Of a stretch of DNA of 64,000 bases, positions 7,656-37,193 are shown piece by piece. Each line of letters opens with the position of its first letter. The first letter of the stretch is position 1. The position numbers and the translations under genes are program-made. The stretch lies in sequence record PZ154896.1; one strand, given 5' to 3'. The notes under the pieces are model-generated. The model searched no databases. It was not told the DNA's origin and saw only the letters and a program-made list of their open reading frames with translations. Source of the DNA: a phage.

Positions 7656-8756
7656 TTACGCTGTGAAGATTTTATCCCACATCGCAACAACTGCATCTCG
7701 GTTATACTTCTTCCATACTGCTTCAGCACGTTTAACTCGAGCTTCGTATGTGTCAGTGAATTCTAATACAGCTTTTGTGTAAAGCGCAACTACTTCTTTC
7801 TTAGGAGTAGAGGAATCAATTTCTACACGCACAGTATCTGGGTCGTATTCAAATGTCGCATGAGGATAATCCTTAAAAACTAACTGGATTACAGGGACAC
7901 CTTTAGAGATGGCTTCAATAGAACTATTCTCTACTGTACCTGTGTCAGGACAAGTATTAATAAGTGCTTTAGCTGTTTTAAGACGTTCCATGATTTCACT
8001 GTGTGGGGCATCAATAATAACAGGATATTTAGATGGTGGTGCCCATTTGCTTGGACAGTATCCTACACCATTTTCGCCTAGTGCTTTAATCGCTTCAAGA
8101 GCAACATCAGTACGACGCATTTTAGTGTCATAACGTTGTGCACTAATAATCAGATCAGTCGCCGGAAGAACTTCAGGTTTCTCATTCAAACAAATAACCG
8201 GATAATCTTCGGCTTCAAACAACGGATTTGCTCGCCAATAATCATAATCAATTTTGTCAGTCAGACCTGAAGTCATATGGCAATATTTACGTTCAAATTC
8301 ACGGAAGGCTTTAGTAGGAGCATAACTCTTACCACCATTCTTATGAATTTGAATAGTCTGGTCCCAAATTTGAACAATGCCACGAGATACTGGTTCAAAT
8401 GGTGTTGCCATAAAATTCTTATGAACTTTAGAGAGACCTGCGTCTTTAATTGCCTGAACGGTTAGTTTAGTCGGTTCCATAGTAACAACAAAATCGTATT
8501 CATGGATGCCGGCTAGTTCAACAATCTTACGAGCCATAGTATAACTCATACCTAGACTGAATTTAGTCAGATGACCAACAGGATGGTGTGTAACTTTCCA
8601 GTCACCAAACGTGTCATTATCAAAGCCGATATAATCAATATCAGCACCGATGGACACAAGATATTTCAACACATTTAAATGTACTGCTTCAAGGCCACCT
8701 TGTACACGGTCAGGATTAAATGGGACTGCGCGAGATGGGATAAACATAACTTTCAT
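7656..8756 (-). CDS. Candidate DNA sugar transferase (position of the RB69 putative arabinosyl-hmC transferase)
   Basis: 366-aa ORF between rIIA and gene 39; no match to T4 alpha-/beta-glucosyltransferase as remembered; call is by genomic context. Confidence 0.5.
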   Translation of the reverse strand: MKVMFIPSRAVPFNPDRVQGGLEAVHLNVLKYLVSIGADIDYIGFDNDTFGDWKVTHHPVGHLTKFSLGMSYTMARKIVELAGIHEYDFVVTMEPTKLTVQAIKDAGLSKVHKNFMATPFEPVSRGIVQIWDQTIQIHKNGGKSYAPTKAFREFERKYCHMTSGLTDKIDYDYWRANPLFEAEDYPVICLNEKPEVLPATDLIISAQRYDTKMRRTDVALEAIKALGENGVGYCPSKWAPPSKYPVIIDAPHSEIMERLKTAKALINTCPDTGTVENSSIEAISKGVPVIQLVFKDYPHATFEYDPDTVRVEIDSSTPKKEVVALYTKAVLEFTDTYEARVKRAEAVWKKYNRDAVVAMWDKIFTA

Positions 8757-27891: not shown

Positions 27892-28440
27892 TTAACGAGC
27901 CCATTTGATAATTTCTGTAATCAAATAATTACGTTCGCTTGCATTAAATCCTATAACTTTGTTAGCGCCATCATGATTAAGTAATTGATACGTTTGGATT
28001 TCGTTATGAATTGCAAACTCTTCAAAATATGAAATGACTGTATTAAACCCGAATGAAGACAAAGTAATAAGGTCGTCTTCAAAACTTTCAGTCATTTCGT
28101 TACGTGTTAAAATAATTGTGAACACATCATGGTTTTGGCAAAGACGAACATAATCCTGTTCATAAACGTCGAGAACCGAGTCCGCATCTTGTCGAATACG
28201 TCCATAAACCCAGTTACTAATATATCCACGGTCTAGCAGATAAATCTTAGTAGGGTCTAAATAATTCAACATCGTTTCGAAACAGCCAACTTCATTTCGA
28301 GACTTAACATCGAAACGTCCATCAACTGTTCGTTTAGGGAAATCAATCTTTACATATCTTTCACTAATTTCCATTATGTCATTAATGAAAGTTGTTTTAC
28401 CAGCATTATCCGGGCCATCTACTAAAATAATTTTAGCCAT
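27892..28440 (-). CDS. P-loop kinase, thymidylate/dNMP-kinase-like fold, substrate unknown
   Basis: 182 aa; Walker A ILVDGPDNAGKTT and LDRGY motif. Confidence 0.6.
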   Translation of the reverse strand: MAKIILVDGPDNAGKTTFINDIMEISERYVKIDFPKRTVDGRFDVKSRNEVGCFETMLNYLDPTKIYLLDRGYISNWVYGRIRQDADSVLDVYEQDYVRLCQNHDVFTIILTRNEMTESFEDDLITLSSFGFNTVISYFEEFAIHNEIQTYQLLNHDGANKVIGFNASERNYLITEIIKWAR

Positions 28441-28441
28441 T

Positions 28442-29341
28442 TTATTCCTCGATTACGACATCTTCATATTTAGGTATATTATACGGCGAAGAAATTAAAG
28501 CATTAAAGTAGATGAACTCACCAAGACCTGGATGGAATACTTCTTCAGGATTTTCGAAATATTGAATCTTCGGTCGTCCTTTAAGAATTTGATAGTACTC
28601 AGTTTTAGTTGGTTTAAAAATTCGAATCAGCGCTTCTTCAGGATACTTATTTCTGTCGAAGCTATTATTTGGATCGGTTATATAAAGCGGTTGACCTAAT
28701 TGAATTGCACATTCAACCACTTGTTCAAAACGATAACACGGGTCACTAATTCGAAATGGATGAAAAATACCATCTAGATGAATAGGAGCCAAATCACCTA
28801 CAAGACGCTGCATGATGGAAGGACGTATAACTTTCTGGGTTACGATAATCTTATTACCATCGGCACCAGCGTTAACCAGCACTTCCTTTTGACGTTTATT
28901 CAACACAGTAGTTTGAAGTGAACGATTAACCGACAGCATGTCGGTTTTTAAGAATTCGTCAATATAAAAACGTGGTTTATTAGGGTCTGCAGTGATATTG
29001 AAATTGAATTCCACATCAAAAGCGCCGTCATATCCAGTGATATCTGTGATTAGAAAATCACAATCATAATAAGCAATTAATGAATCAACAACAAATTCAT
29101 TTTCAGACCAGAAATATTTACGAGTGTTATACGCGTTATCTTTATACCATAATGGAACAAACTTAAATTCCGGAAAAAGACGTTCACATTCTTTAATATC
29201 AGATGCATTACGTGGATATGTAATCACATCACCTGGATTAGCACGGTGCAAATGAAGTTGGAAGTTGCCATCCTTAAGGATAGCATACTGTCCAGTTTCA
29301 TAAGACCGCATACTCAAGATAGGTACGCGGAAAATAGCCAT
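28442..29341 (-). CDS. Hypothetical enzyme (299 aa) occupying the T4 beta-gt slot
   Basis: ORF track; between 42 and uvsX; no match to T4 beta-gt as remembered. Confidence 0.5.
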   Translation of the reverse strand: MAIFRVPILSMRSYETGQYAILKDGNFQLHLHRANPGDVITYPRNASDIKECERLFPEFKFVPLWYKDNAYNTRKYFWSENEFVVDSLIAYYDCDFLITDITGYDGAFDVEFNFNITADPNKPRFYIDEFLKTDMLSVNRSLQTTVLNKRQKEVLVNAGADGNKIIVTQKVIRPSIMQRLVGDLAPIHLDGIFHPFRISDPCYRFEQVVECAIQLGQPLYITDPNNSFDRNKYPEEALIRIFKPTKTEYYQILKGRPKIQYFENPEEVFHPGLGEFIYFNALISSPYNIPKYEDVVIEE

Positions 29342-30057
29342 TAGTCAAGGAATCCTTTAACATAATCAAAATCACGTTCAAACACATGGGCACTTACCAT
29401 GGTATGAGTATAATCACCAACTTCTACACCACATTCGTTAGCGATATAATGAAGTAATTTTCCTTGGAGATAAAAATCCAACTGCATAACAACAGCACAG
29501 TTCTGAGAACGCATATGACAGTGGGTATAAAGCTTACCATCACGAATATAATAAGTCACTGAGTCAGTACATGGATATTCAAGTGTTTCGTCCGAATCAA
29601 GCAAAGCCTGATCTGAACTTTCAAGAATTTGAAACACAACTCTTCGTGAATTAGGTTTCTCTTTAAGTTCTTTTAGAAGAGCTGGTAATTGGGCCGCAAT
29701 GCGAGGACCATAGAAAGTGTTGAAGTTCGCCGGCAAAACATCTGATTTTGGTTTAGAAATAAATTTAGCGACATTAGGATATGCCTTAAACGCTTCTTCT
29801 GCGTTGGTACCGCCAGAAATCATAAACTTCCAGAAGTCTTCGGCATATTCATAAGAGATGCGGTTAATACGTGGGTCGGTCATTTTGAATGTTGACGGGG
29901 TATCAACAACTACTGTCATAGACCCAATTTCATTACAACGTCCAATACGAGAATCAGTTACGAATTCCGGGTTTTCTAAAATTTCACGATTGACTGCTTT
30001 AAATGCGGTTTGAAAATCTGCGGCTTTGATATATTTCATTGTGTTATGTTTTCCCAT
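29341..30057 (-). CDS. 42: dCMP hydroxymethylase (thymidylate-synthase fold)
   Basis: 238 aa; NSRRVVFQI...CTDSVTYYIRDGKLYTHCHMRSQNCAV... homologous to T4 gp42. Confidence 0.8.
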   Translation of the reverse strand: MGKHNTMKYIKAADFQTAFKAVNREILENPEFVTDSRIGRCNEIGSMTVVVDTPSTFKMTDPRINRISYEYAEDFWKFMISGGTNAEEAFKAYPNVAKFISKPKSDVLPANFNTFYGPRIAAQLPALLKELKEKPNSRRVVFQILESSDQALLDSDETLEYPCTDSVTYYIRDGKLYTHCHMRSQNCAVVMQLDFYLQGKLLHYIANECGVEVGDYTHTMVSAHVFERDFDYVKGFLD

Positions 30058-30076: not shown

Positions 30077-30100
30077 ATTATATACTCAATTCGTAAAGCT
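30077..30100 (-). promoter_or_regulatory. Candidate MotA-type middle promoter for gene 42 (aGCTTTA, 11 nt, TATAAT); second MotA-box-like copy ~30133-30139
   Basis: Direct repeat cgtaaagctt twice upstream of gene 42. Confidence 0.35.
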
Positions 30101-30178
30101 TATTTGAATTTCTTGATAATGTTGATATAACGTAAAGCTTCAGCATCGATACTTCCAAGAACACTATGAAGAAATGCA

Positions 30179-30340
30179 TCAGCGTAGTATTCCAATTGAA
30201 CAGGTTTCTTTAATCACTTTAGCCGCTTTAGTTTCAAACAGGCCCATCAGGGCCTTTTTAAGAATTTGTTCGTTGCTGTTAATTTTCGTAGTCAAAATCT
30301 CTTCATTAAGTTGGTGGTTAAAAGTTTTTCTAGAAATCAT
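30179..30340 (-). CDS. Small protein (53 aa) translationally coupled to the 386-aa gene
   Basis: Hand-translated MISRKTFNHQLNEEILTTKINSNEQILKKALMGLFETKAAKVIKETCSIGILR; ATGA overlap with upstream stop. Confidence 0.4.
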   Translation of the reverse strand: MISRKTFNHQLNEEILTTKINSNEQILKKALMGLFETKAAKVIKETCSIGILR

Positions 30341-31497
30341 TCCGGGTACCTCAAAGCGTCATCAGAGTTAGTTATATCAATAATAGATATAGAGTTTTCT
30401 GCTAACCCGTTTTTAGATAATTGACGTTTATAATATCTTTCACAATATGTACACGTCGTCCCGCAGATTTCATTAGCACAATCGAAATCTGGATGTCTGA
30501 ACCACCTTTTTTCTAAAAAGCCATCTAACAAAGAGGTTTCAATATTTACTGTATGTGAAAACTCTGTCTCATTTTCAAGAGTGAAAATGGTCTCTAAAGG
30601 CTTCCACAGTTCTAACAAATTACCTTCAAACTTTTCAGAAGCATAAGCTTCAAGAACTTTCAAAATGTAGTCTGTGCTACCTGTACGTCCTGAAACTTTG
30701 AATTGAGTGATACCAATATCATTATAAAGTTTCAAATCTTGAGGACGAACAAAACGAGTTCTCAACCAGTTAAATGGATCTGTATCACGAGCTTTAATAC
30801 AGTGCTGCATTGGATATCCATTTAAAGATTTGGCATCATCTACTGTAACATCGGTGCTATGGAAAATATAGCAAGAGTCACGATAACTACAATGTGTTGT
30901 ATACCCTTTACCAGCATTAGAACAGAACTCATTTACAAGAACTTCAAATATTATATTGTTCTTATTACAAAACTCTGCTGCACGCTTCAGGAAAGAAACT
31001 GAACGGTTCTTATGAATTCCGCAGCAGACCTTTTTGATATTATATTGGTCATGCAAGTATTTGATTTGAGTTACAGCATCGACATGTAGAATTGTTGAAA
31101 CTTCAATCTCAATGTCTTTATTGACTTCACGAACAATTTCCATAACAACAGGGTTAGCGATAGTAATACGCCATACGCCTATTGACCAAAGATACTGAAC
31201 ATAATCCTGAATAGCTTTCTTCTTCCACTCAACTAGTTCTCTTTTTGAACCAGGATTTATCGTGTTGAGTGTATAGTTAAAGCAAATACCTAATTCGTTA
31301 CAACGTTTAACGTAATCTTCTAACATCTTTTTGTCAACGTCAGGAAGCCTAAAATCAGGTCTGGCTGCTACAAAAGCCATTTCTCTTGTAGAGCCGTATA
31401 CTTCGTTTATCAAGCTATTAGGATAAGTTTTATTGAGCTCTACGATTTTATCAAGAAGAGCTAAATCAAAATTCGTTCCGATTTTAAAAGTATTCAT
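30337..31497 (-). CDS. Cys-rich putative enzyme (386 aa), unknown fold; C-terminal Cx4Cx3Cx2C metal-binding-like motif
   Basis: ORF track; CANEICGTTCTYC motif; member of sugar-pathway gene block. Confidence 0.55.
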   Translation of the reverse strand: MNTFKIGTNFDLALLDKIVELNKTYPNSLINEVYGSTREMAFVAARPDFRLPDVDKKMLEDYVKRCNELGICFNYTLNTINPGSKRELVEWKKKAIQDYVQYLWSIGVWRITIANPVVMEIVREVNKDIEIEVSTILHVDAVTQIKYLHDQYNIKKVCCGIHKNRSVSFLKRAAEFCNKNNIIFEVLVNEFCSNAGKGYTTHCSYRDSCYIFHSTDVTVDDAKSLNGYPMQHCIKARDTDPFNWLRTRFVRPQDLKLYNDIGITQFKVSGRTGSTDYILKVLEAYASEKFEGNLLELWKPLETIFTLENETEFSHTVNIETSLLDGFLEKRWFRHPDFDCANEICGTTCTYCERYYKRQLSKNGLAENSISIIDITNSDDALRYPE

Positions 31498-31552
31498 TTT
31501 TACATCTCGCGTTAATTGATGCGATGGTTTTTTGCAGGTCTTACTTAAATTA

Positions 31553-31939
31553 TTATAGATTCGGTTTATATGATTTAAATGTTTCGAATTCGCCTTTATT
31601 CATAAGAGCTTTGAATTCGTCAGGACGCATAGCTTTGTCGTCGATAATCCAATCATATACTGGTTTATGTGTTAGCAAATTATGGTACTTCAATCCAATG
31701 TTTGCCAAGTTCTGAATCAGACTTGGGAGAATGTCAATTGCTATACGACCAGGACCTACTGACTTCATACCGCGAGCAGTGTAAAGCGTTATTGTATGCC
31801 CTGCATCATACAGGGCATTAATGGCAGACACCATTTCGACGTCTGGTTTGAAGTTCACGTAATCACGATTGTTATTCCACTCTGTTATACAATCATCGAC
31901 ATCAAAACAAAGATTAAGCATGTTTTTTACACGGTGCAT
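31553..31939 (-). CDS. HAD-superfamily small phosphatase
   Basis: Motif I FDVDDCIT, motif III/IV HKPVYDWIIDDK; start ATG overlaps upstream stop (TAATG). Confidence 0.6.
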   Translation of the reverse strand: MHRVKNMLNLCFDVDDCITEWNNNRDYVNFKPDVEMVSAINALYDAGHTITLYTARGMKSVGPGRIAIDILPSLIQNLANIGLKYHNLLTHKPVYDWIIDDKAMRPDEFKALMNKGEFETFKSYKPNL

Positions 31940-33624
31940 TAGATTCGTTCCCATTGATGAGTGATATCGCCACCGATTGGACGATAGGAAACACCAGTTT
32001 CTTTATCAGTTAGTACCCATTTACCAGGATTTTTTGTAATCAGAGTAGCCGTTACAGGTTCTGCTACGTCATAACTAATAGAGCCGTCCTGAAGTACACG
32101 GCCCATGTTACGTAATTGCTTAGTCAGAAGTTCCATACCTTTATAATATGCGGCTACCGCTTTAAGTGGATTATTCTTGAAATAACCACCTAATGCAATC
32201 CAGATAATTGCTACAGCCAAATGATGATACTCGTTAAACGAACTCATCTTTCCATATTTGTAAACTAATGGATTGATGTTAATAGTCACATTACAAGTTG
32301 TTTCATCAATAGTAAACTGTCCCCAGGTCGGATTAGCATTGAATTCATCATAACCTGAAACAGCATAAAGCACTTTAGCTTCATCATACAATTTTGGCCC
32401 GTAAATCTTGGTTTCGCCAAAATATCCACGAGGGTCGATAAACTTGACTTCACCATTATCAGTAATCATAGTATTACTGAAGTTCGGGTCGCCATGAATA
32501 ACAGAGTACTGTCCCTGAGAACGGTTATGATAACGAATAAGGTGTTCTAAAGCTTGTTTCAGCATTGGCTTCAGACGCCCAATCTTAGTGTAGTTCACAT
32601 GTGTGATTTTACCAAATGAATCAATCAATGGTTGAATACTTTCACAACGATCAATAACTTTCGTATAGAACTCTTTAGTGAAATCACGACGAACAGTTTC
32701 AGGACTTACAAAATAAGTGTCTGTGCTGAATTTCAGTGCGTCTAAAATTGCATCAACAATTTGTGGACGAGCAAGACTCGATTTGGATTTAATATATTCA
32801 AATGCCGGCTTACCTTTAATGCGTTCCATTTCAAAGTTATTTTCATTAACAGAAACTAACTGAGGAACTGAATCTGATTTCACTTTAAGATACCATGAAA
32901 TCTCATCTTTCTGAAGAGCTCGGCCCTGTTCGGTTAATGCGAATTTAGTTACAGTTTCTTCACCGATTTCAACTGCATTAAAACTACGATTAAGTTCACG
33001 AACTTCATGAGCCTTTTCAAGTTTAGGCATATCACCTAAATCAATTAGATTCATAAGCTCTGATTTATTGAATGCGCTGCCGTAAAGGAATTCTACGAAA
33101 TCACGTCCTTTGCAGTATTCATGAATTTCCTCATCAGTAGAACCCATATAGAATTCCCAGTCTTTGAACTGATAAATTCCTACAACATTACCACCTGTTG
33201 AACCTACGTTAGTGATATTTTCACCGTCGAAATTATATCGACATTCGTCACCCTTAACATAGATTGCGTTAACATTCCAAGACCATGAACCAAAATCAGG
33301 AATAATATCACACCAGTTAACAATTACATTATGGCCGTCTAAATCTTTGTGTAATTTAGCAAGAGCATAAGCAGAACCATATGCTTCATCAACTGTACGA
33401 ATAGTCACATTGAACCCTTCTTGCTCACAATAAGCTCGAACAGTTTCAGCAAATTTTGAATGAACTACTACAATAATTTCATCTGCGCCAAGGTCAGAAT
33501 AAATTGTATACAAATTGCTCAGAATAGTGTCTTGTTTATAGTTAACAAGCACCTTAGGAATATGATGCGTTATTGGATACAAACGAGTTGCCAGTCCAGC
33601 ACCAAGAATAACAGCTTTTTTCAT
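31939..33624 (-). CDS. Bifunctional sugar-1-phosphate nucleotidyltransferase (N-term) / APH-ChoK-fold kinase (C-term)
   Basis: 561 aa; N-term AVILGAGLATRLYPITHHIPKVLV; C-term HGDPNFSNTMI...IDPRGYFG kinase motifs. Confidence 0.7.
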   Translation of the reverse strand: MKKAVILGAGLATRLYPITHHIPKVLVNYKQDTILSNLYTIYSDLGADEIIVVVHSKFAETVRAYCEQEGFNVTIRTVDEAYGSAYALAKLHKDLDGHNVIVNWCDIIPDFGSWSWNVNAIYVKGDECRYNFDGENITNVGSTGGNVVGIYQFKDWEFYMGSTDEEIHEYCKGRDFVEFLYGSAFNKSELMNLIDLGDMPKLEKAHEVRELNRSFNAVEIGEETVTKFALTEQGRALQKDEISWYLKVKSDSVPQLVSVNENNFEMERIKGKPAFEYIKSKSSLARPQIVDAILDALKFSTDTYFVSPETVRRDFTKEFYTKVIDRCESIQPLIDSFGKITHVNYTKIGRLKPMLKQALEHLIRYHNRSQGQYSVIHGDPNFSNTMITDNGEVKFIDPRGYFGETKIYGPKLYDEAKVLYAVSGYDEFNANPTWGQFTIDETTCNVTININPLVYKYGKMSSFNEYHHLAVAIIWIALGGYFKNNPLKAVAAYYKGMELLTKQLRNMGRVLQDGSISYDVAEPVTATLITKNPGKWVLTDKETGVSYRPIGGDITHQWERI

Positions 33625-33665
33625 GTTGTGGTCCTCATTGGTAAGTAGGAGTATTGTACACTATT

Positions 33666-33809
33666 CTAGTTAAAGCATTCATACTTTGCTTGTAGTCCAA
33701 TCATAATCCATCCGATTACAAGTGTTGGAATCATTACTGGAGCCGTTAAGCTCCAGTAGATAGTCATGATAAGCATCAATAGTAAAAGTCCTATTGTTAT
33801 TGCTTTCAT
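33666..33809 (-). CDS. Small membrane protein (47 aa) coupled to isomerase gene
   Basis: Hand-translated MKAITIGLLLLMLIMTIYWSLTAPVMIPTLVIGWIMIGLQAKYECFN; ATGA overlap. Confidence 0.4.
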   Translation of the reverse strand: MKAITIGLLLLMLIMTIYWSLTAPVMIPTLVIGWIMIGLQAKYECFN

Positions 33810-34441
33810 TGTTCGCCTCGTAACATGGCACCTAGTGCACCACCAGGGTGGAACTTAAGGAAGTCATTAGAGGTAAATCCACGCTCAGACGAAAGGTTGA
33901 TAGCAAACGTATCGATAAGCGCTAACAACAATGTAGTGGACATAGTCGGAGCCAGAGAATTCTCATCAACCTCTACTGCGATGCCTGTACAGAAAGAGTA
34001 ATCAAAAAGGGCTTCATTTTCTTGTGGAATGTCTGGGTTACAATGCAACAGAATCTGTTTGACGTTCGGACGAATCATTTTAAGATGCTTAGCCACGCCT
34101 ATCATTTCTTCAGTTTTACCAGAACGACTAATATGAATCAACACATCATTAGGCGCAATGAATCCTGCATCACCGTGAGAATAATGCCCGGTGTTCAAGT
34201 ACATACTCGGGATACCGAGTGAAGCAAATGTCTCAGAAGCTTTAGTTGCAATATTAGCATTCTTACCAACACCTGTAATAATTACTCGGCTTTCATAATT
34301 ACTAAGTCCGGGGCGTCGAAGAGTTTCTAGAATAGCATTATAACGAGCAGGGTTTTGACTAATTACTTTGGCCATAGCGGCCAAAGAAGAAGCTTGTTTT
34401 ATGATTGCGTCAATAGCGATAGTAATAGGAGTAGTTTTCAT
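33806..34441 (-). CDS. SIS-domain sugar-phosphate isomerase, KdsD/GutQ-like (arabinose-5-phosphate isomerase-like), no CBS domains
   Basis: 211 aa; ITGVGKNANIATK...HGDAGFI...ISRSGKTEE...LAPTMSTT...FHPGGALG parallels KdsD SIS motifs. Confidence 0.7.
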   Translation of the reverse strand: MKTTPITIAIDAIIKQASSLAAMAKVISQNPARYNAILETLRRPGLSNYESRVIITGVGKNANIATKASETFASLGIPSMYLNTGHYSHGDAGFIAPNDVLIHISRSGKTEEMIGVAKHLKMIRPNVKQILLHCNPDIPQENEALFDYSFCTGIAVEVDENSLAPTMSTTLLLALIDTFAINLSSERGFTSNDFLKFHPGGALGAMLRGEQ

Positions 34442-34481: not shown

Positions 34482-37193
34482 TCAAAAATCGAACATATCG
34501 AACAGAGATGCTTTCTTCTCGTAATCGAGTTTCGCTGCTGATGTGAATCCTTCAAGTGGTTTAATAAATGTCTTCTCAAGGAGAACAGTGTAGTCCATCC
34601 AATGAAGTACGTCGTCTTTAATTAAATCTGTGATTTCAGTACCAGAAGGCCATGCGATACATTTATCACCGAATGGGTTTCCTTCACGTAAAGGCAGAAC
34701 ATATACTTTTTCACCTTCTACAACTTGCGGTGCATCGATATTACCTTTGATAGCCCGGTTATACGTCAGAATTCCACGAATATGGAACGGGCATTTGGGA
34801 CCAGGGAATCCACCTACATCATATTTAGCAATGTTATTCGCAGAAGATACCGACGCGATGCTAATATAATTCAATTGACGGAATTCTTTTTCAAACTCTT
34901 TAAAATATTCTTGTAATGATTCTTCACCTTCTTGAAGCATACGACGAATACATTCTTTAAGAGCTTTCTGTACTGCTTTAGGAGTCGAAGATTTCTGAGT
35001 CTCTAGACCCATGATTTTGAGTTTAGGCTCAGCGTAACGAGTACCTTCCATATCCCACACGTTTAATGCATAACGTTTCTTACCAGTCCAGAATCCACCA
35101 ATACCTTTAGAACCGAGTGGAGGCCCAGCGATAGCTTCTCGGTCCATGAACATTAAGTGTTGTTTATTGTTCATGTATTCACACATTTCACGGAAACCTC
35201 TATCAATAGCTGGTTCCATACGTTCACGTGCAAACTTATCTAAGAAGTCTACCCAATGGTTGGTATCACGGAATTTAGATTCACCAACCTTATCGATAAT
35301 TTTATCAGCAGATACGTAAATAGAGTCTGTATCACCATAAAGAACGAAAGCTTCACCTTCTGTACCACAAACTTCATTCAGATATTCATTAACTTTACGT
35401 TCAATCCACTGTAAAGCCATTTGCCCGAATGTTGTGATTGCAGTAGCATTACGCAAATCATAATAACGAAACCAAACGTTGCCAAGTGCACCATAAAGTG
35501 AGTTGATAAGCAATTTACGGTTAATTTGGGCAGTCATACCTGCAACTTCAGTACGTTGAGCTCTAAACAACATTTCATTAAGAGATTTAGCAGACAACTT
35601 TTTAATCTTTTCTTTAATCTCATCGCTGAAGTCGAAACGATAATCAACATCTAATGGTTCGTCAACAGAAAGATTAGGATTATGCAATGCCTCTTTAATT
35701 ATTTCGCCATTACGTTGAGCCGCAAGCATATAACCTTTATGTTCTTTACGTTGATTAAAGACCTTAGTGATTTCAGTTGGAACTACACCATCACGATCTT
35801 TATAATACATCATGCCGTTAGGAGAACAACTGTACACATCAGAAGGACGTTCAGCAACAGCGTTAATATAATCATGCAATGGAGCTACTTTAAACGTTCC
35901 TGCTATTGTTTCTGGGCTAATATTCACTTGGCGAATAATACTTGGATACAGAGATGTAAGGTCGAAACTCATTACATATTTGTATCGATTTGGAATAGGT
36001 TCCTTAACAAAAGCGCCGGGATAAGGTTGAACCGGGTGAGAACGACCTTGTGGAATCACCTTGTTCTGCTCTTTAAGGCTATTAAAAATAATAGCATCCC
36101 AAGTTTTAATTGGACTGAACACAGATTGAATCTGTATCTTAGCATAATAACCCATGTCCAAACTCAAGTTGATGAACTGACGCTTAGCATCAATTTGCAA
36201 TACACGATACACGTCGATAATGTTATAAGAAATATATCGTTGGTGATTGCTTTCACGAAGCTTAGAAATAGGGCCGTCATATTTCAGTTTACCAACGTTC
36301 AATTCAAATTCTGAAATGTAATCCAGAGAATATGACGGTTGATTGGTAAAAGAGAATTTTTTGTAAAGGTCAATGTAATCAAGAACAGAGATACCGAACA
36401 ATGTAATGATTTCACGAGAACCATACATGTTTTCAATAACTTTAACACGAGTTTTACGATGTGGTGATAAACGTTTCGCAGTAGATTCACCAAAAATATT
36501 CTTGATTCGGTTATACACATACGGAATATCAAATGACTCAACGTTCCATCCAGTCAAAATGACAGGAGTTTTCTGTTGCCAGAAGTTGAGATATTCCATC
36601 AACAATTCTTTTTCGTTATTGAACGGCATATAAATGATTTTATCGATAATTTCGGATGGAACTTCATCACCGCCTTGTTCTTGAAGCTTAGCAGCGATTT
36701 CAATAGACCATTCTTCTACATTACCATATGGAGAATTCAATAGATCAAATACGTAGAACCTGTCGTCAATTGAGTCATAATGGGTGATAGCATCAATCGG
36801 ATGTTTTGCTTGTGACGGCTCAGGGAACCCATCCGGAGATGTTACTTCGATGTCGAAGTTAGCCACACGAATTTTTGTATGGTCGTATTTGATTTCATAG
36901 TTATAAGTGTCAGACAAATACGCCAATTTGAAATCGTCCATGCCAAGTGCTTCAAGTCCGATATCTTCCATGCGTTTAATCCATTGGGAGGCATCACGCA
37001 TATTGGCGAACAACTTACGAGTACACGGCTTACCGTAGATATCGAAATATTTCGTAGCCTGACTTTCTGGACAATGAGCAAACAGTGATGGTTTATATTC
37101 TACTTCACGAGTACGTTCACGGCCGTTAGAATCGATGTAACGTTCAAAAATTGAATCACCAATCTGTTCAACCGTTAAGTAAAATTCTTTCAT
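34482..37193 (-). CDS. 43: DNA polymerase (gp43, family B)
   Basis: 903 aa; MKEFYLTVEQIGDSIFERYIDSNGRERTREVEYKPSLFAHCPESQATKYFDIYGKPCTRKLF... matches RB69 gp43 as remembered. Confidence 0.97.
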   Translation of the reverse strand: MKEFYLTVEQIGDSIFERYIDSNGRERTREVEYKPSLFAHCPESQATKYFDIYGKPCTRKLFANMRDASQWIKRMEDIGLEALGMDDFKLAYLSDTYNYEIKYDHTKIRVANFDIEVTSPDGFPEPSQAKHPIDAITHYDSIDDRFYVFDLLNSPYGNVEEWSIEIAAKLQEQGGDEVPSEIIDKIIYMPFNNEKELLMEYLNFWQQKTPVILTGWNVESFDIPYVYNRIKNIFGESTAKRLSPHRKTRVKVIENMYGSREIITLFGISVLDYIDLYKKFSFTNQPSYSLDYISEFELNVGKLKYDGPISKLRESNHQRYISYNIIDVYRVLQIDAKRQFINLSLDMGYYAKIQIQSVFSPIKTWDAIIFNSLKEQNKVIPQGRSHPVQPYPGAFVKEPIPNRYKYVMSFDLTSLYPSIIRQVNISPETIAGTFKVAPLHDYINAVAERPSDVYSCSPNGMMYYKDRDGVVPTEITKVFNQRKEHKGYMLAAQRNGEIIKEALHNPNLSVDEPLDVDYRFDFSDEIKEKIKKLSAKSLNEMLFRAQRTEVAGMTAQINRKLLINSLYGALGNVWFRYYDLRNATAITTFGQMALQWIERKVNEYLNEVCGTEGEAFVLYGDTDSIYVSADKIIDKVGESKFRDTNHWVDFLDKFARERMEPAIDRGFREMCEYMNNKQHLMFMDREAIAGPPLGSKGIGGFWTGKKRYALNVWDMEGTRYAEPKLKIMGLETQKSSTPKAVQKALKECIRRMLQEGEESLQEYFKEFEKEFRQLNYISIASVSSANNIAKYDVGGFPGPKCPFHIRGILTYNRAIKGNIDAPQVVEGEKVYVLPLREGNPFGDKCIAWPSGTEITDLIKDDVLHWMDYTVLLEKTFIKPLEGFTSAAKLDYEKKASLFDMFDF

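Follow-up and report, generated by a model that had tools for sequence, protein, structure and literature searches.

The closest described system is that of phage RB69 and its relatives, in which the modified base is 5-hydroxycytosine arabosylated through a direct ether link, not 5-hydroxymethylcytosine (hmC) (PMC13326640). Lee et al. 2026 (PMC13326640) describe arabinosyl-5-hydroxycytosine, as reportedly do Mahler et al. 2025 and He et al. 2026, and 5-ara-dC was independently confirmed in a Mosigvirus. The base is hydroxylated by RB69 gp48, a flavin- and O2-dependent dCMP 5-hydroxylase for which activity and 18O2 labelling have been published (PMC13326640). The donor route was proposed in 2018 and worked out in 2025-2026. 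As PMC13326640 reports from He et al., it runs from ribulose-5-phosphate (Ru5P) through arabinose-5-phosphate (Ara5P), Ara-1,5-bisphosphate and Ara-1-P to UDP-Araf, so that the kinase step precedes the phosphatase step; the AfhE and AfhF steps alone are described as needed for UDP-Araf synthesis after Ara5P. Table 1 of PMC13326640 still gives an older step order, and gp50, the U32-family protein of the cluster, is only listed in that paper, without discussion. Both the gene cluster and the UDP-arabinose donor pathway are already published.

T4 hmC glucosylation likewise begins with the modification of dCMP by a ThyA-superfamily enzyme ahead of replication and ends with glycosyltransferases acting on the DNA, and it has the same genome position, between genes 43 and uvsX. 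It differs in the base, which in T4 (gp42, alpha-gt/beta-gt, host UDP-glucose) is 5-hydroxymethylated with folate and in the phage studied here would be 5-hydroxylated with flavin and O2, and in the donor, which T4 takes from its host and this phage must make. For donor synthesis the nearest parallel is the ADP-L-glycero-D-manno-heptose pathway, with GmhA (SIS isomerase), HldE (kinase and nucleotidyltransferase) and GmhB (HAD phosphatase). The logic is identical: an isomerase, an anomeric kinase that gives a bisphosphate, a HAD enzyme that removes the distal phosphate, and a nucleotidyltransferase, with kinase and transferase fused. However, the phage sugar is a pentofuranose instead of a heptose, the carrier is UDP instead of ADP, the kinase is APH/protein-kinase-like instead of ribokinase-fold, and the product feeds DNA instead of LPS. 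AmgK/MurU and LicA/LicC likewise pair an APH-fold kinase with a small sugar-1-P nucleotidyltransferase, but the AmgK and LicA kinases take free sugar or choline, whereas the phage kinase is reported to act on a sugar 5-phosphate, in a route with an extra phosphatase step.

The window analysed here is a 64-kb (64,000-nt) stretch of phage record PZ154896.1. The first-pass annotation had noticed an insertion of sugar-activation genes between the genes for DNA polymerase and a dCMP hydroxymethylase, and this observation is real: six minus-strand ORFs occupy positions 30179-34441 (see the table below). Their proteins are 98.4-100% identical to those of RB69 ORF049c-055c, with gene order kept, and the locus DNA is 98.9% identical to sequenced Mosigviruses and has a base composition ordinary for the genome. 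The genes had been called translationally coupled, which is true only in part, since neighbours overlap at three junctions (by 4, 16 and 4 nt) and are separated at three others by short gaps of 40, 41 and 55 nt. A scan for sigma-70 promoters and terminators gave no enrichment over shuffled sequence. Compared with RB69 gp45-gp55 and the HY126 Afh pathway, the window has the same genes in the same order, and two of its enzymes have near-identical solved structures; there was no difference of substance from RB69 gp45-gp55 in the sugar pathway, and the window's ORF049c copy is frameshifted. Judged by homology, the locus is very probably the arabinosyl-5-hydroxycytosine hypermodification cluster of RB69-like phages. 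With the donor pathway settled, the value of the comparison is correct annotation: most database records for the cluster genes read 'hypothetical', 'GlmU', 'phosphoheptose isomerase' or 'peptidase'.

Features of the candidate arabinosyl-5-hydroxycytosine cluster, its flanks and associated genes (window coordinates)
Feature	Position	Strand	Basis
Second DNA arabinosyltransferase, predicted (RB69 gp3 equivalent)	7656..8756	(-)	tblastn, position
Tmk-like nucleotide kinase (RB69 gp45)	27892..28440	(-)	weak dTMP-kinase P-loop match
First DNA arabinosyltransferase, predicted (RB69 gp46:47), intact 299-aa ORF	28442..29341	(-)	homology
ThyA-superfamily 5-hydroxy-dCMP synthase (RB69 gp48; first-pass 'gene 42'), locus flank	29341..30057	(-)	PDB, RB69 identity
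RB69 ORF049c homolog	30100..30340	(-)	comparison with RB69; no Pfam or chorismate mutase profile match
U32-family Fe-S protein, Cys-rich, 386 aa (RB69 gp50)	30337..31497	(-)	Pfam, AF2 fold, hhalign
HAD phosphatase, 133 aa (RB69 gp51; AfhF-type)	31553..31954	(-)	PDB, NCBIfam, motif
Fused nucleotidyltransferase-kinase, 561 aa (RB69 gp52:53; AfhE-type)	31939..33624	(-)	Pfam, PDB, motifs
47-aa hydrophobic ORF (RB69 ORF054c position)	33666..33809	(-)	ORF call
SIS arabinose-5-phosphate isomerase, single-domain, 211 aa (RB69 gp55)	33806..34441	(-)	Pfam, NCBIfam, PDB matches
DNA polymerase, locus flank	34482-37193		

The four enzyme families named in the first-pass annotation hold up. SIS, HAD and nucleotidyltransferase were recovered by Pfam, NCBIfam or PDB matches, the kinase had weak Pfam matches, and catalytic motifs are intact in the fused enzyme and the HAD phosphatase. 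The SIS isomerase is 100% identical to RB69 ORF055c. It matched Pfam PF01380 (1e-10, 41.9 bits against a cutoff of 25), the NCBIfam models KpsF/GutQ (2e-32) and KdsD (7e-31), and the API structures 3etn (2.6e-25), 2xhz (3.5e-19) and 5uqi in the PDB (E 1e-19 to 1e-25). It does not have the full-length architecture of SIS plus tandem CBS domains (TIGR00393, 112.9 bits against a cutoff of 203.7) and, in contrast to KpsF/GutQ/KdsD, is SIS-only, like the single-domain Bacteroides enzyme 3etn. The enzyme would convert ribulose-5-P to arabinose-5-P, the role assigned to gp55 by PMC13326640 and the pathway start that had been foreseen.

The N-terminus of the fused enzyme matched Pfam NTP_transferase (PF00483, 8.5e-10, 39.1 bits against a cutoff of 21.2) and PDB 1jyk (2e-5), with the motif GAGLATR intact. 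In the C-terminal half, Pfam kinase matches were all weak and under their cutoffs; the sequence has HGDPNFSN at 377 and DPRG at 397, and a structural match of the kinase domain to aminoglycoside phosphotransferase has been described (PMC13326640). The single intact 561-aa ORF agrees with the statement in PMC13326640 that the split ORF of RB69 is a sequencing error. We infer that this protein is orthologous to HY126 AfhE, to which He et al. 2026, as relayed by PMC13326640, ascribe Ara5P kinase and uridylyltransferase activities. The HAD phosphatase matched 9iqw (E 2.8e-87), a near-identical solved structure, as well as 1xpj (5e-10) and the capsule-biosynthesis HAD phosphatase model TIGR01689 (4e-13, 49 bits against a cutoff of 162), and its motif I is intact (DVDDC at residue 18).

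The order of these steps had been proposed differently in the first-pass annotation, with the HAD enzyme first freeing arabinose from Ara5P, an anomeric kinase then giving Ara-1-P, and NDP-arabinose following by AmgK/MurU logic. This order agrees with the function wording in Table 1 of PMC13326640, and the N-terminal half of the fused enzyme matches MurU and LicC best, in structure and in sequence. [quoted passage not shown] We consider the free-arabinose order quite unlikely and prefer the route through the bisphosphate, in which the C-terminal kinase of the fused enzyme would phosphorylate C1 to give arabinose-1,5-bisphosphate, the HAD phosphatase would take off the 5-phosphate, and the N-terminal nucleotidyltransferase would convert Araf-1-P to UDP-arabinofuranose. 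A nucleotide-activated arabinose had been correctly anticipated as the product (UDP-Araf in the published pathway); the accompanying remark that donor biosynthesis was not established had been overtaken by the reports cited above.

The ThyA homolog is 98.7% identical to RB69 gp48, and solved structures 9iqc and 9ir2 (E 2e-160) and 9iqu are near-identical. What had been read as a gene 42 dCMP hydroxymethylase providing arabinosyl-hmC therefore corresponds to the flavin/O2-dependent 5-hydroxy-dCMP synthase, and the actual base is arabosylated 5-hydroxycytosine (PMC13326640). The proposed link to DNA sugar decoration, with alpha-gt/beta-gt genes absent, was borne out. In parallel with donor synthesis, the ThyA homolog would hydroxylate dCMP at C5 with flavin and O2, 5hodCTP would be incorporated into DNA, and one or two arabinoses would be put on by the two predicted glycosyltransferases at 28442-29341 and 7656-8756. 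The latter was detected by tblastn with DLP3 gp77 (42.6% identity, E 2e-98) and sits between rIIA and the topoisomerase gene. The Tmk-like kinase is 98.9% identical to RB69 ORF045c.

The 386-aa Cys-rich protein had been described as of unknown fold and placed in the sugar pathway. It matched Pfam Peptidase_U32 (PF01136, 6.3e-11, 42.4 bits against a cutoff of 22.4), and its AF2 model (pLDDT 91.6) is the U32 TIM-barrel of this Fe-S family. The top PDB match of the model in Foldseek was 5d88 (E 1.8e-7, target-normalised TM-score 0.70); a PDB sequence search returned nothing even at E<=1. Among the E. coli paralogs tested, RlhA, the ho5C2501 synthase, was the best profile match (hhalign E 7e-6), and profile similarity to UbiU and TrhP was too weak for use. 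The U32 domain and fold are common to the phage protein, RlhA, TrhP (ho5U34) and UbiU/UbiV, at ~20% identity. Phage C203 and C209 are invariant and align with RlhA C169 and C176, both of which are essential for rRNA cytosine-5 hydroxylase activity. The cysteine spacing differs: instead of the CX6CX15CX3C of RlhA, the phage protein has C192-X10-C203-X5-C209-X23-C233 and an extra C-terminal four-Cys cluster, C340-X4-C345-X3-C349-X2-C352.

Ten cysteines were invariant across 44 U32 sequences with identities down to 48%, and no other protein of the cluster was as conserved as U32 (79-89% identity, compared to 60-83% for DNA polymerase). Its pS, at 0.69-0.81, was saturated, and its pN, at 0.11-0.16, ranked with the lowest of the cluster. 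This indicates that U32 is under purifying selection, and we rejected recent horizontal transfer as the cause of its high conservation. The database name 'peptidase U32', and several phage records that say peptidase or collagenase, would suit a genuine collagenase-like peptidase, and a dispensable passenger gene might also be imagined. We give either reading very little credence, since the selection is strong, conservation exceeds that of DNA polymerase, the invariant cysteines are of Fe-S type, and genes of nucleotide metabolism and of prephenate consistently accompany it.

This linkage was examined across phage records and contigs. U32 was present in 222 cultured phage records, with hosts that were all Enterobacterales or Shewanella, and a Pfam-verified AroQ chorismate mutase (CM) directly followed it in 56 phage records; in Thanatos-1 the two genes move as a unit. 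Near U32 on independent contigs were a DAHP synthase (L018, 2.6e-70), a DAHP-synthase-CM fusion (L031) and CM_2 (L028, L033, L034). In the nine metagenomic phage loci, a 5hoC-type GT homolog lay immediately upstream of U32 in six and a Tmk-like kinase was present in five; a ThyA homolog was detected in none of the nine within the +-8-10 kb covered, so one could be elsewhere on those contigs. U32 matches in a GTDB genome scan fell in species genomes that were nearly all of gut or fermentative anaerobes, an assignment based on MAG taxon labels that may reflect mis-binned phage contigs. Among phages of Acinetobacter, a strict aerobe, 57 records have the sugar pathway, and these do not show U32. 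In DLP3 the HAD gene leads to the ThyA homolog with no gap between them.

These contexts bear on what U32 does. A role in the sugar branch, as a 'sugar or heterocycle reductase' or in another step of UDP-arabinose biosynthesis, is how Table 1 of PMC13326640 and the BASEL phage annotation label it, and the gene is placed between those for the HAD enzyme and the ThyA homolog. However, Acinetobacter phages build identical or still longer arabinosyl chains without U32, many homologs are on contigs with GT, kinases and polymerase and without sugar-activation genes, and the recurrent partners are CM and DAHP synthase. We regard a sugar-branch role as distinctly improbable; the evidence puts U32 with the base-hydroxylation side. 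A U32 hydroxylase with another target (dUMP or uracil, post-replication DNA, or host tRNA or rRNA in translation reprogramming) would be in keeping with the RNA bases and quinone precursors that are known U32 substrates, with the dCMP deaminase, dUTPase or UDG beside some homologs, and with the methyltransferase adjoining U32 in L016 and L038. It appears unlikely nonetheless, as in T4-like phages the gene is embedded in the cytosine-modification cluster, the 5hoC-type GT adjoins it in 6/9 metagenomic loci, and, unlike the 653-aa RlhA with its long C-terminal region, the protein has no RNA-binding extension.

We lean, by a modest degree, towards U32 being a putative Fe-S, prephenate-dependent and O2-independent pyrimidine C5 hydroxylase that gives 5-hydroxycytosine and is not part of sugar activation. 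It would act like RlhA, TrhP and UbiU/V; the chemistry of the U32 hydroxylases is what the phage needs, pyrimidine C5 hydroxylation without O2. The product, 5-hydroxy-dC, would most likely be made at the nucleotide level, in an anoxic host where the O2-dependent ThyA homolog fails. UbiU/V take their oxygen from prephenate, and RlhA depends on it; a TrhP study reportedly found the same. According to the literature, however, neither RlhA nor TrhP has yet been demonstrated to hydroxylate directly. The linkage of phage U32 homologs to prephenate supply genes fits prephenate-dependent hydroxylases. The 64-kb window contains no chorismate mutase, which counts against the proposal, as do the differing cysteine spacing and the weak profile similarity to UbiU and TrhP; this phage would use host prephenate, and many relatives bring their own CM. 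Two further observations count against an anaerobic hydroxylase: Dhakaviruses, with E. coli hosts, are without U32, and the ThyA homolog was retained in every T4-like U32 carrier examined. The context of deoxynucleotide/DNA modification is unlike that of RlhA, TrhP or UbiU/UbiV, and we know of no U32 enzyme that acts on a deoxynucleotide or DNA. Searches of the accessible literature found nothing linking U32, chorismate mutase or prephenate to phage cytosine modification. For gp50-type U32 proteins in general, we see an about even chance that they hydroxylate C5 of deoxycytidylate, or of cytosine in DNA, with prephenate and independently of O2. The known arabinosyl pathway together with U32 as an O2-independent hydroxylase is, we believe, a likely joint explanation of the locus.

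The proposal is important since the one 5-hydroxy-dCMP synthase known so far depends on O2, yet these phages prey on gut Enterobacterales; RB69-like phages also carry an anaerobic ribonucleotide reductase. Aerobic/anaerobic enzyme pairs include UbiH/F/I and UbiU/V, TrhO and TrhP, and NrdAB and NrdDG. If the proposal is correct, enterobacterial T4-like phages would own such a pair in the flavin ThyA homolog and the Fe-S U32 protein, which would explain complete cytosine replacement, and hence restriction and CRISPR resistance, in the anoxic gut. In uncultured phages of obligate anaerobes, U32 would be the sole hydroxylase feeding DNA glycosyltransferases or methyltransferases, a widespread and unrecognised entry to DNA hypermodification. 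It would be the first U32 enzyme in DNA metabolism and would bring to DNA precursors a chemistry, with prephenate as the oxygen donor, that is known from RNA and quinones; U32 with CM or DAHP synthase, GT and kinase would be a genomic marker of hypermodified DNA in uncultured phages of anaerobes. This would have a bearing on phage therapy, and on the sequencing and cloning of such phages.

Downstream of U32, a 1-nt insertion shortens the ORF049c homolog, 79 aa in RB69, to a 53-aa ORF (30179-30340). Entb_45 has its CM in this slot, and we rejected the reading of the ORF as a decayed chorismate mutase: it had no Pfam match at E<=10, CM_2 (AroQ) included, and neither its frameshift-corrected version nor the intact 79-aa ORF049c of RB69 gave a signal with Pfam or with a phage CM profile. 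That profile, made from eight phage CMs, found nothing in the slot and scored RB69 ORF049c negatively. In Yersinia phage TG1 the homolog of the 53-aa ORF is a small ORF of its own. At the other end of the block, the start of the 47-aa ORF overlaps the stop of the SIS gene. Counterparts with 57-64% identity occur at the same position in Entb_45, LC53, TG1, EcS1 and Bp7, and transmembrane segments are noted for the counterpart in the LC53 record.

Six minus-strand ORFs lie between the genes for DNA polymerase (34482-37193) and the ThyA/gp42 homolog (29341-30057). The gene cluster described in the first-pass annotation is real, and profile searches returned the families it had named: SIS, NTP_transferase with weak kinase matches, and a HAD phosphatase of the capsule-biosynthesis type. 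Sequenced Mosigviruses match the cluster region at 98.9% identity, and 153 phage records cover it at 95-99%. Its proteins share 98.4-100% identity with RB69 ORF045c-055c, and the PDB holds near-identical structures of the HAD protein (9iqw, E 3e-87) and the ThyA homolog (9iqc, 9ir2 and 9iqu, E 2e-160).

Genes of the modification cluster and other modification-related candidates in the window
Feature	Position	Strand	Remarks
SIS protein, 211 aa	between DNA polymerase and ThyA homolog	-	profile match SIS
Hydrophobic ORF, 47 aa	33666-33809	-	start overlaps isomerase stop
Fused protein, 561 aa	31939-33624	-	profile match NTP_transferase, weak kinase matches
HAD protein, 133 aa	between DNA polymerase and ThyA homolog	-	capsule-biosynthesis phosphatase profile
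Cys-rich protein (gp50), 386 aa	30337-31497, between DNA polymerase and ThyA homolog	-	Peptidase_U32 above Pfam cutoff
Small ORF, 53 aa	within 30100-30340	-	truncated RB69 ORF049c homolog
First glycosyltransferase (GT)	28442-29341	-	gp46:47-type
Tmk-like kinase	27892-28440		gp45-type
Second GT	7656-8756		43% identical to DLP3 gp77
gp56-like dCTPase candidate	19931-20467		

Gene junctions in the cluster comprise three overlaps and three gaps of 40-55 nt, base composition is ordinary, and the enzyme motifs GAGLATR, HGDPNFSN, DPRG and DVDDC are all intact. Two genes that the RB69 reference record shows in pieces, ORF052c/053c and ORF046c/047c, are each one uninterrupted ORF here (the fused protein and the first GT, respectively), which independently supports the published attribution of the RB69 splits to sequencing error. 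The 47-aa ORF is kept at the same position, at 57-64% identity, in Kanagawa-, Winkler-, Teguna-, Kagamiyama- and Dhakaviruses. The ORF049c homolog is cut to 53 aa by one extra nucleotide in an A-run (aaagAaacc, near 30200); the intact protein has 79 aa in RB69 and Bas46, and SQ17, the closest relative, carries a separate CAA-to-TAA nonsense codon a few codons from this insertion. Unless they are sequencing errors, these independent lesions make ORF049c look dispensable, or in decay, within this clade. At 30077-30100 (minus strand), upstream of the ThyA homolog, AGCTTTA is followed after 11 nt by TATAAT; by eye the arrangement resembles a T4 middle (MotA-box) promoter. If real, it would allow the hydroxylase, GT and kinase genes to be transcribed apart from the sugar genes and the U32 gene.

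The donor pathway as first stated is already known. ORF055c and ORF53_52c were proposed for UDP-arabinose synthesis already by Thomas et al. 2018, and RB69 DNA contains mono- and di-arabinosylated 5-hydroxycytosine, with an ether link and no methylene bridge (Lee et al. 2026, PMC13326640). In the same study, gp48 was the 5-hydroxy-dCMP synthase, with bound flavin and 18O taken from O2, and UDP-Araf was the sugar donor in vitro. Working on another Mosigvirus, a second group likewise found 5-ara-dC and 5-ara-ara-dC, and it termed the hmC assignment erroneous. In the route of He et al. 2026, in so far as it is cited in PMC13326640, the isomerase yields Ara5P, the bifunctional AfhE-type enzyme converts it to the 1,5-bisphosphate, an AfhF-type HAD protein then removes the 5-phosphate, and the AfhE N-terminal domain makes UDP-Araf. 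The enzyme assignments and the general idea of an arabinose-type donor pathway thus stand, while the base (hmC), the placing of the phosphatase before the kinase and the view that donor biosynthesis was not established do not. We take the ADP-heptose pathway (GmhA, HldE, GmhB), not AmgK/MurU, to be the closest mechanistic analog of the donor route.

The Cys-rich protein gp50 occupies one table row in Lee et al. (PMC13326640), under the label 'sugar or heterocycle reductase'. It had initially been assigned an unknown fold; beyond the Pfam match, its AF2 model is confident (pLDDT 91.6, pTM 0.90), with the U32 protein Mk0906 as the best solved match. Among the E. coli U32 paralogs compared, the best profile match was RlhA (E 7e-6 over 203 columns), whose product is 5-hydroxycytidine 2501 in 23S rRNA; RlhA and TrhP both belong to the U32 family. 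The invariant phage residues C203 and C209 align in the profile alignment on RlhA C169 and C176, both essential (Kimura et al.), although the cysteine spacing differs from the RlhA pattern. Ten cysteines, including a C-terminal CX4CX3CX2C group, are invariant in all 44 family members compared, which reach as low as 48% identity. RlhA activity needs prephenate, and for UbiU/V under anoxia prephenate is the proven oxygen donor. The same is reported for TrhP. Direct hydroxylase activity is undemonstrated even in RlhA or TrhP.

The family of gp50 comprises 1,181 representatives at E<=1e-3. In 56 phage records, spread over many genera, the gene immediately after U32 encodes the prephenate-forming enzyme AroQ chorismate mutase (CM; Pfam CM_2, 2.4e-10). 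Among the carriers are Serratia LC53 and 92A1 and Shewanella Thanatos, with DNA known to carry arabinosylated 5hoC, and in Thanatos-1 the U32-CM pair has been relocated together elsewhere in the cluster. Subfamily homologs are found in unrelated contigs at 40-58% identity, again beside genes tied to prephenate supply; U32 adjoins a CM_2 gene in L028, L033 and L034, DAHP synthase in L018 and a DAHP-synthase-CM fusion in L031. In six of nine metagenomic phage loci a gp46:47-type GT homolog lies directly upstream of U32, and five contain a gp45-like kinase; genes for DNA polymerase III alpha, dCMP deaminase, dUTPase, UDG, dNK and NT5C also occur nearby. The ThyA homolog was found in none of the nine, within the 8-10 kb on either side that these short contigs offer.

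No other protein of the cluster is as conserved as U32, at 79-89% identity; the corresponding ranges are 60-83% in DNA polymerase and 42-72% in the sugar-activating enzyme. Saturation at its synonymous sites, together with one of the cluster's lowest pN values, points to purifying selection and rules out recent spread as the cause of this conservation.

The subfamily occurs in 222 of ~50,700 cultured phage genomes, and the hosts are without exception facultative anaerobes (Enterobacterales or Shewanella). It was not seen in 57 phage records with the sugar pathway from Acinetobacter, a strict aerobe; in DLP3 the HAD gene directly abuts the ThyA homolog, and Dhakaviruses of E. coli are also without the U32 gene. 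Matches in species genomes, where MAG labels may be unreliable, fall almost entirely in gut or fermentative anaerobes (Erysipelotrichales, Oscillospiraceae, Lachnospiraceae, Romboutsia, Gastranaerophilaceae, Eubacteriaceae and Phocaeicola). Phages of an aerobe thus have the ThyA homolog only, those of facultative anaerobes both, and those associated with obligate anaerobes U32 only, within contig reach. This division fits the aerobic and anaerobic enzyme pairs known from E. coli, for example UbiH/F/I and UbiU/V; TrhO and TrhP form another such pairing. We therefore propose, as an inference whose odds we put at even or slightly better, that gp50 is an O2-independent source of 5-hydroxy-dC and uses prephenate. 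This Mosigvirus, in whose 64-kb window no chorismate mutase was found, would draw prephenate from the host pool. In the accessible literature, which leaves He et al. 2026 and Mahler et al. 2025 outside, no link was found between gp50-type U32 proteins and O2-independent 5-hydroxy-dC. The proposal addresses the cluster's single unexplained and most conserved gene, is specific and cheap to test, and should interest the fields of phage DNA modification and U32 enzymes.

No SIS isomerase was detected in the loci of Bp7 (L002, a Dhakavirus), Kpn_P545 (L003) and Biddle_MM4 (L007), Klebsiella Marfavirus-type phages included, and the Dhakavirus and Klebsiella Marfavirus-type kinase-nucleotidyltransferases are only 42-44% identical to that of the window. 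These phages may activate a sugar other than arabinose, or may obtain Ara5P through host KdsD. Biddle_MM4, like the Mosigvirus, has U32 without chorismate mutase. Homing-endonuclease genes lie in or beside the cluster (L004 5078-5716, L005 8215-8868, L008 11503-12108), between HAD and U32 in LC53 and splitting uvsX in Thanatos-1 and TG1, consistent with the known plasticity of the region.

In L016 (5912-9098, a Phocaeicola faecalis scaffold) and L038 (3044-7137, a contig also encoding dockerin/GH43 genes), the genes before U32 encode a GP88-like phage protein, a methyltransferase, which in L038 is fused to guanylate kinase, and an uncharacterised protein of ~265 aa; L016 additionally has NT5C, dNK and nucleoside deoxyribosyltransferase. 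These contexts could reflect pyrimidine modification of a methoxy type instead of glycosylation. In uncultured phage contigs, a gene of the radical SAM type (often SPASM) is found repeatedly a few genes from U32 (L015 1-249, L016 12160-13185, L021 5980-7011, L023 7972-9000), followed directly in L016 by another U32 paralog, highly divergent at 22% identity; its product might act as a partner in electron transfer or maturation.
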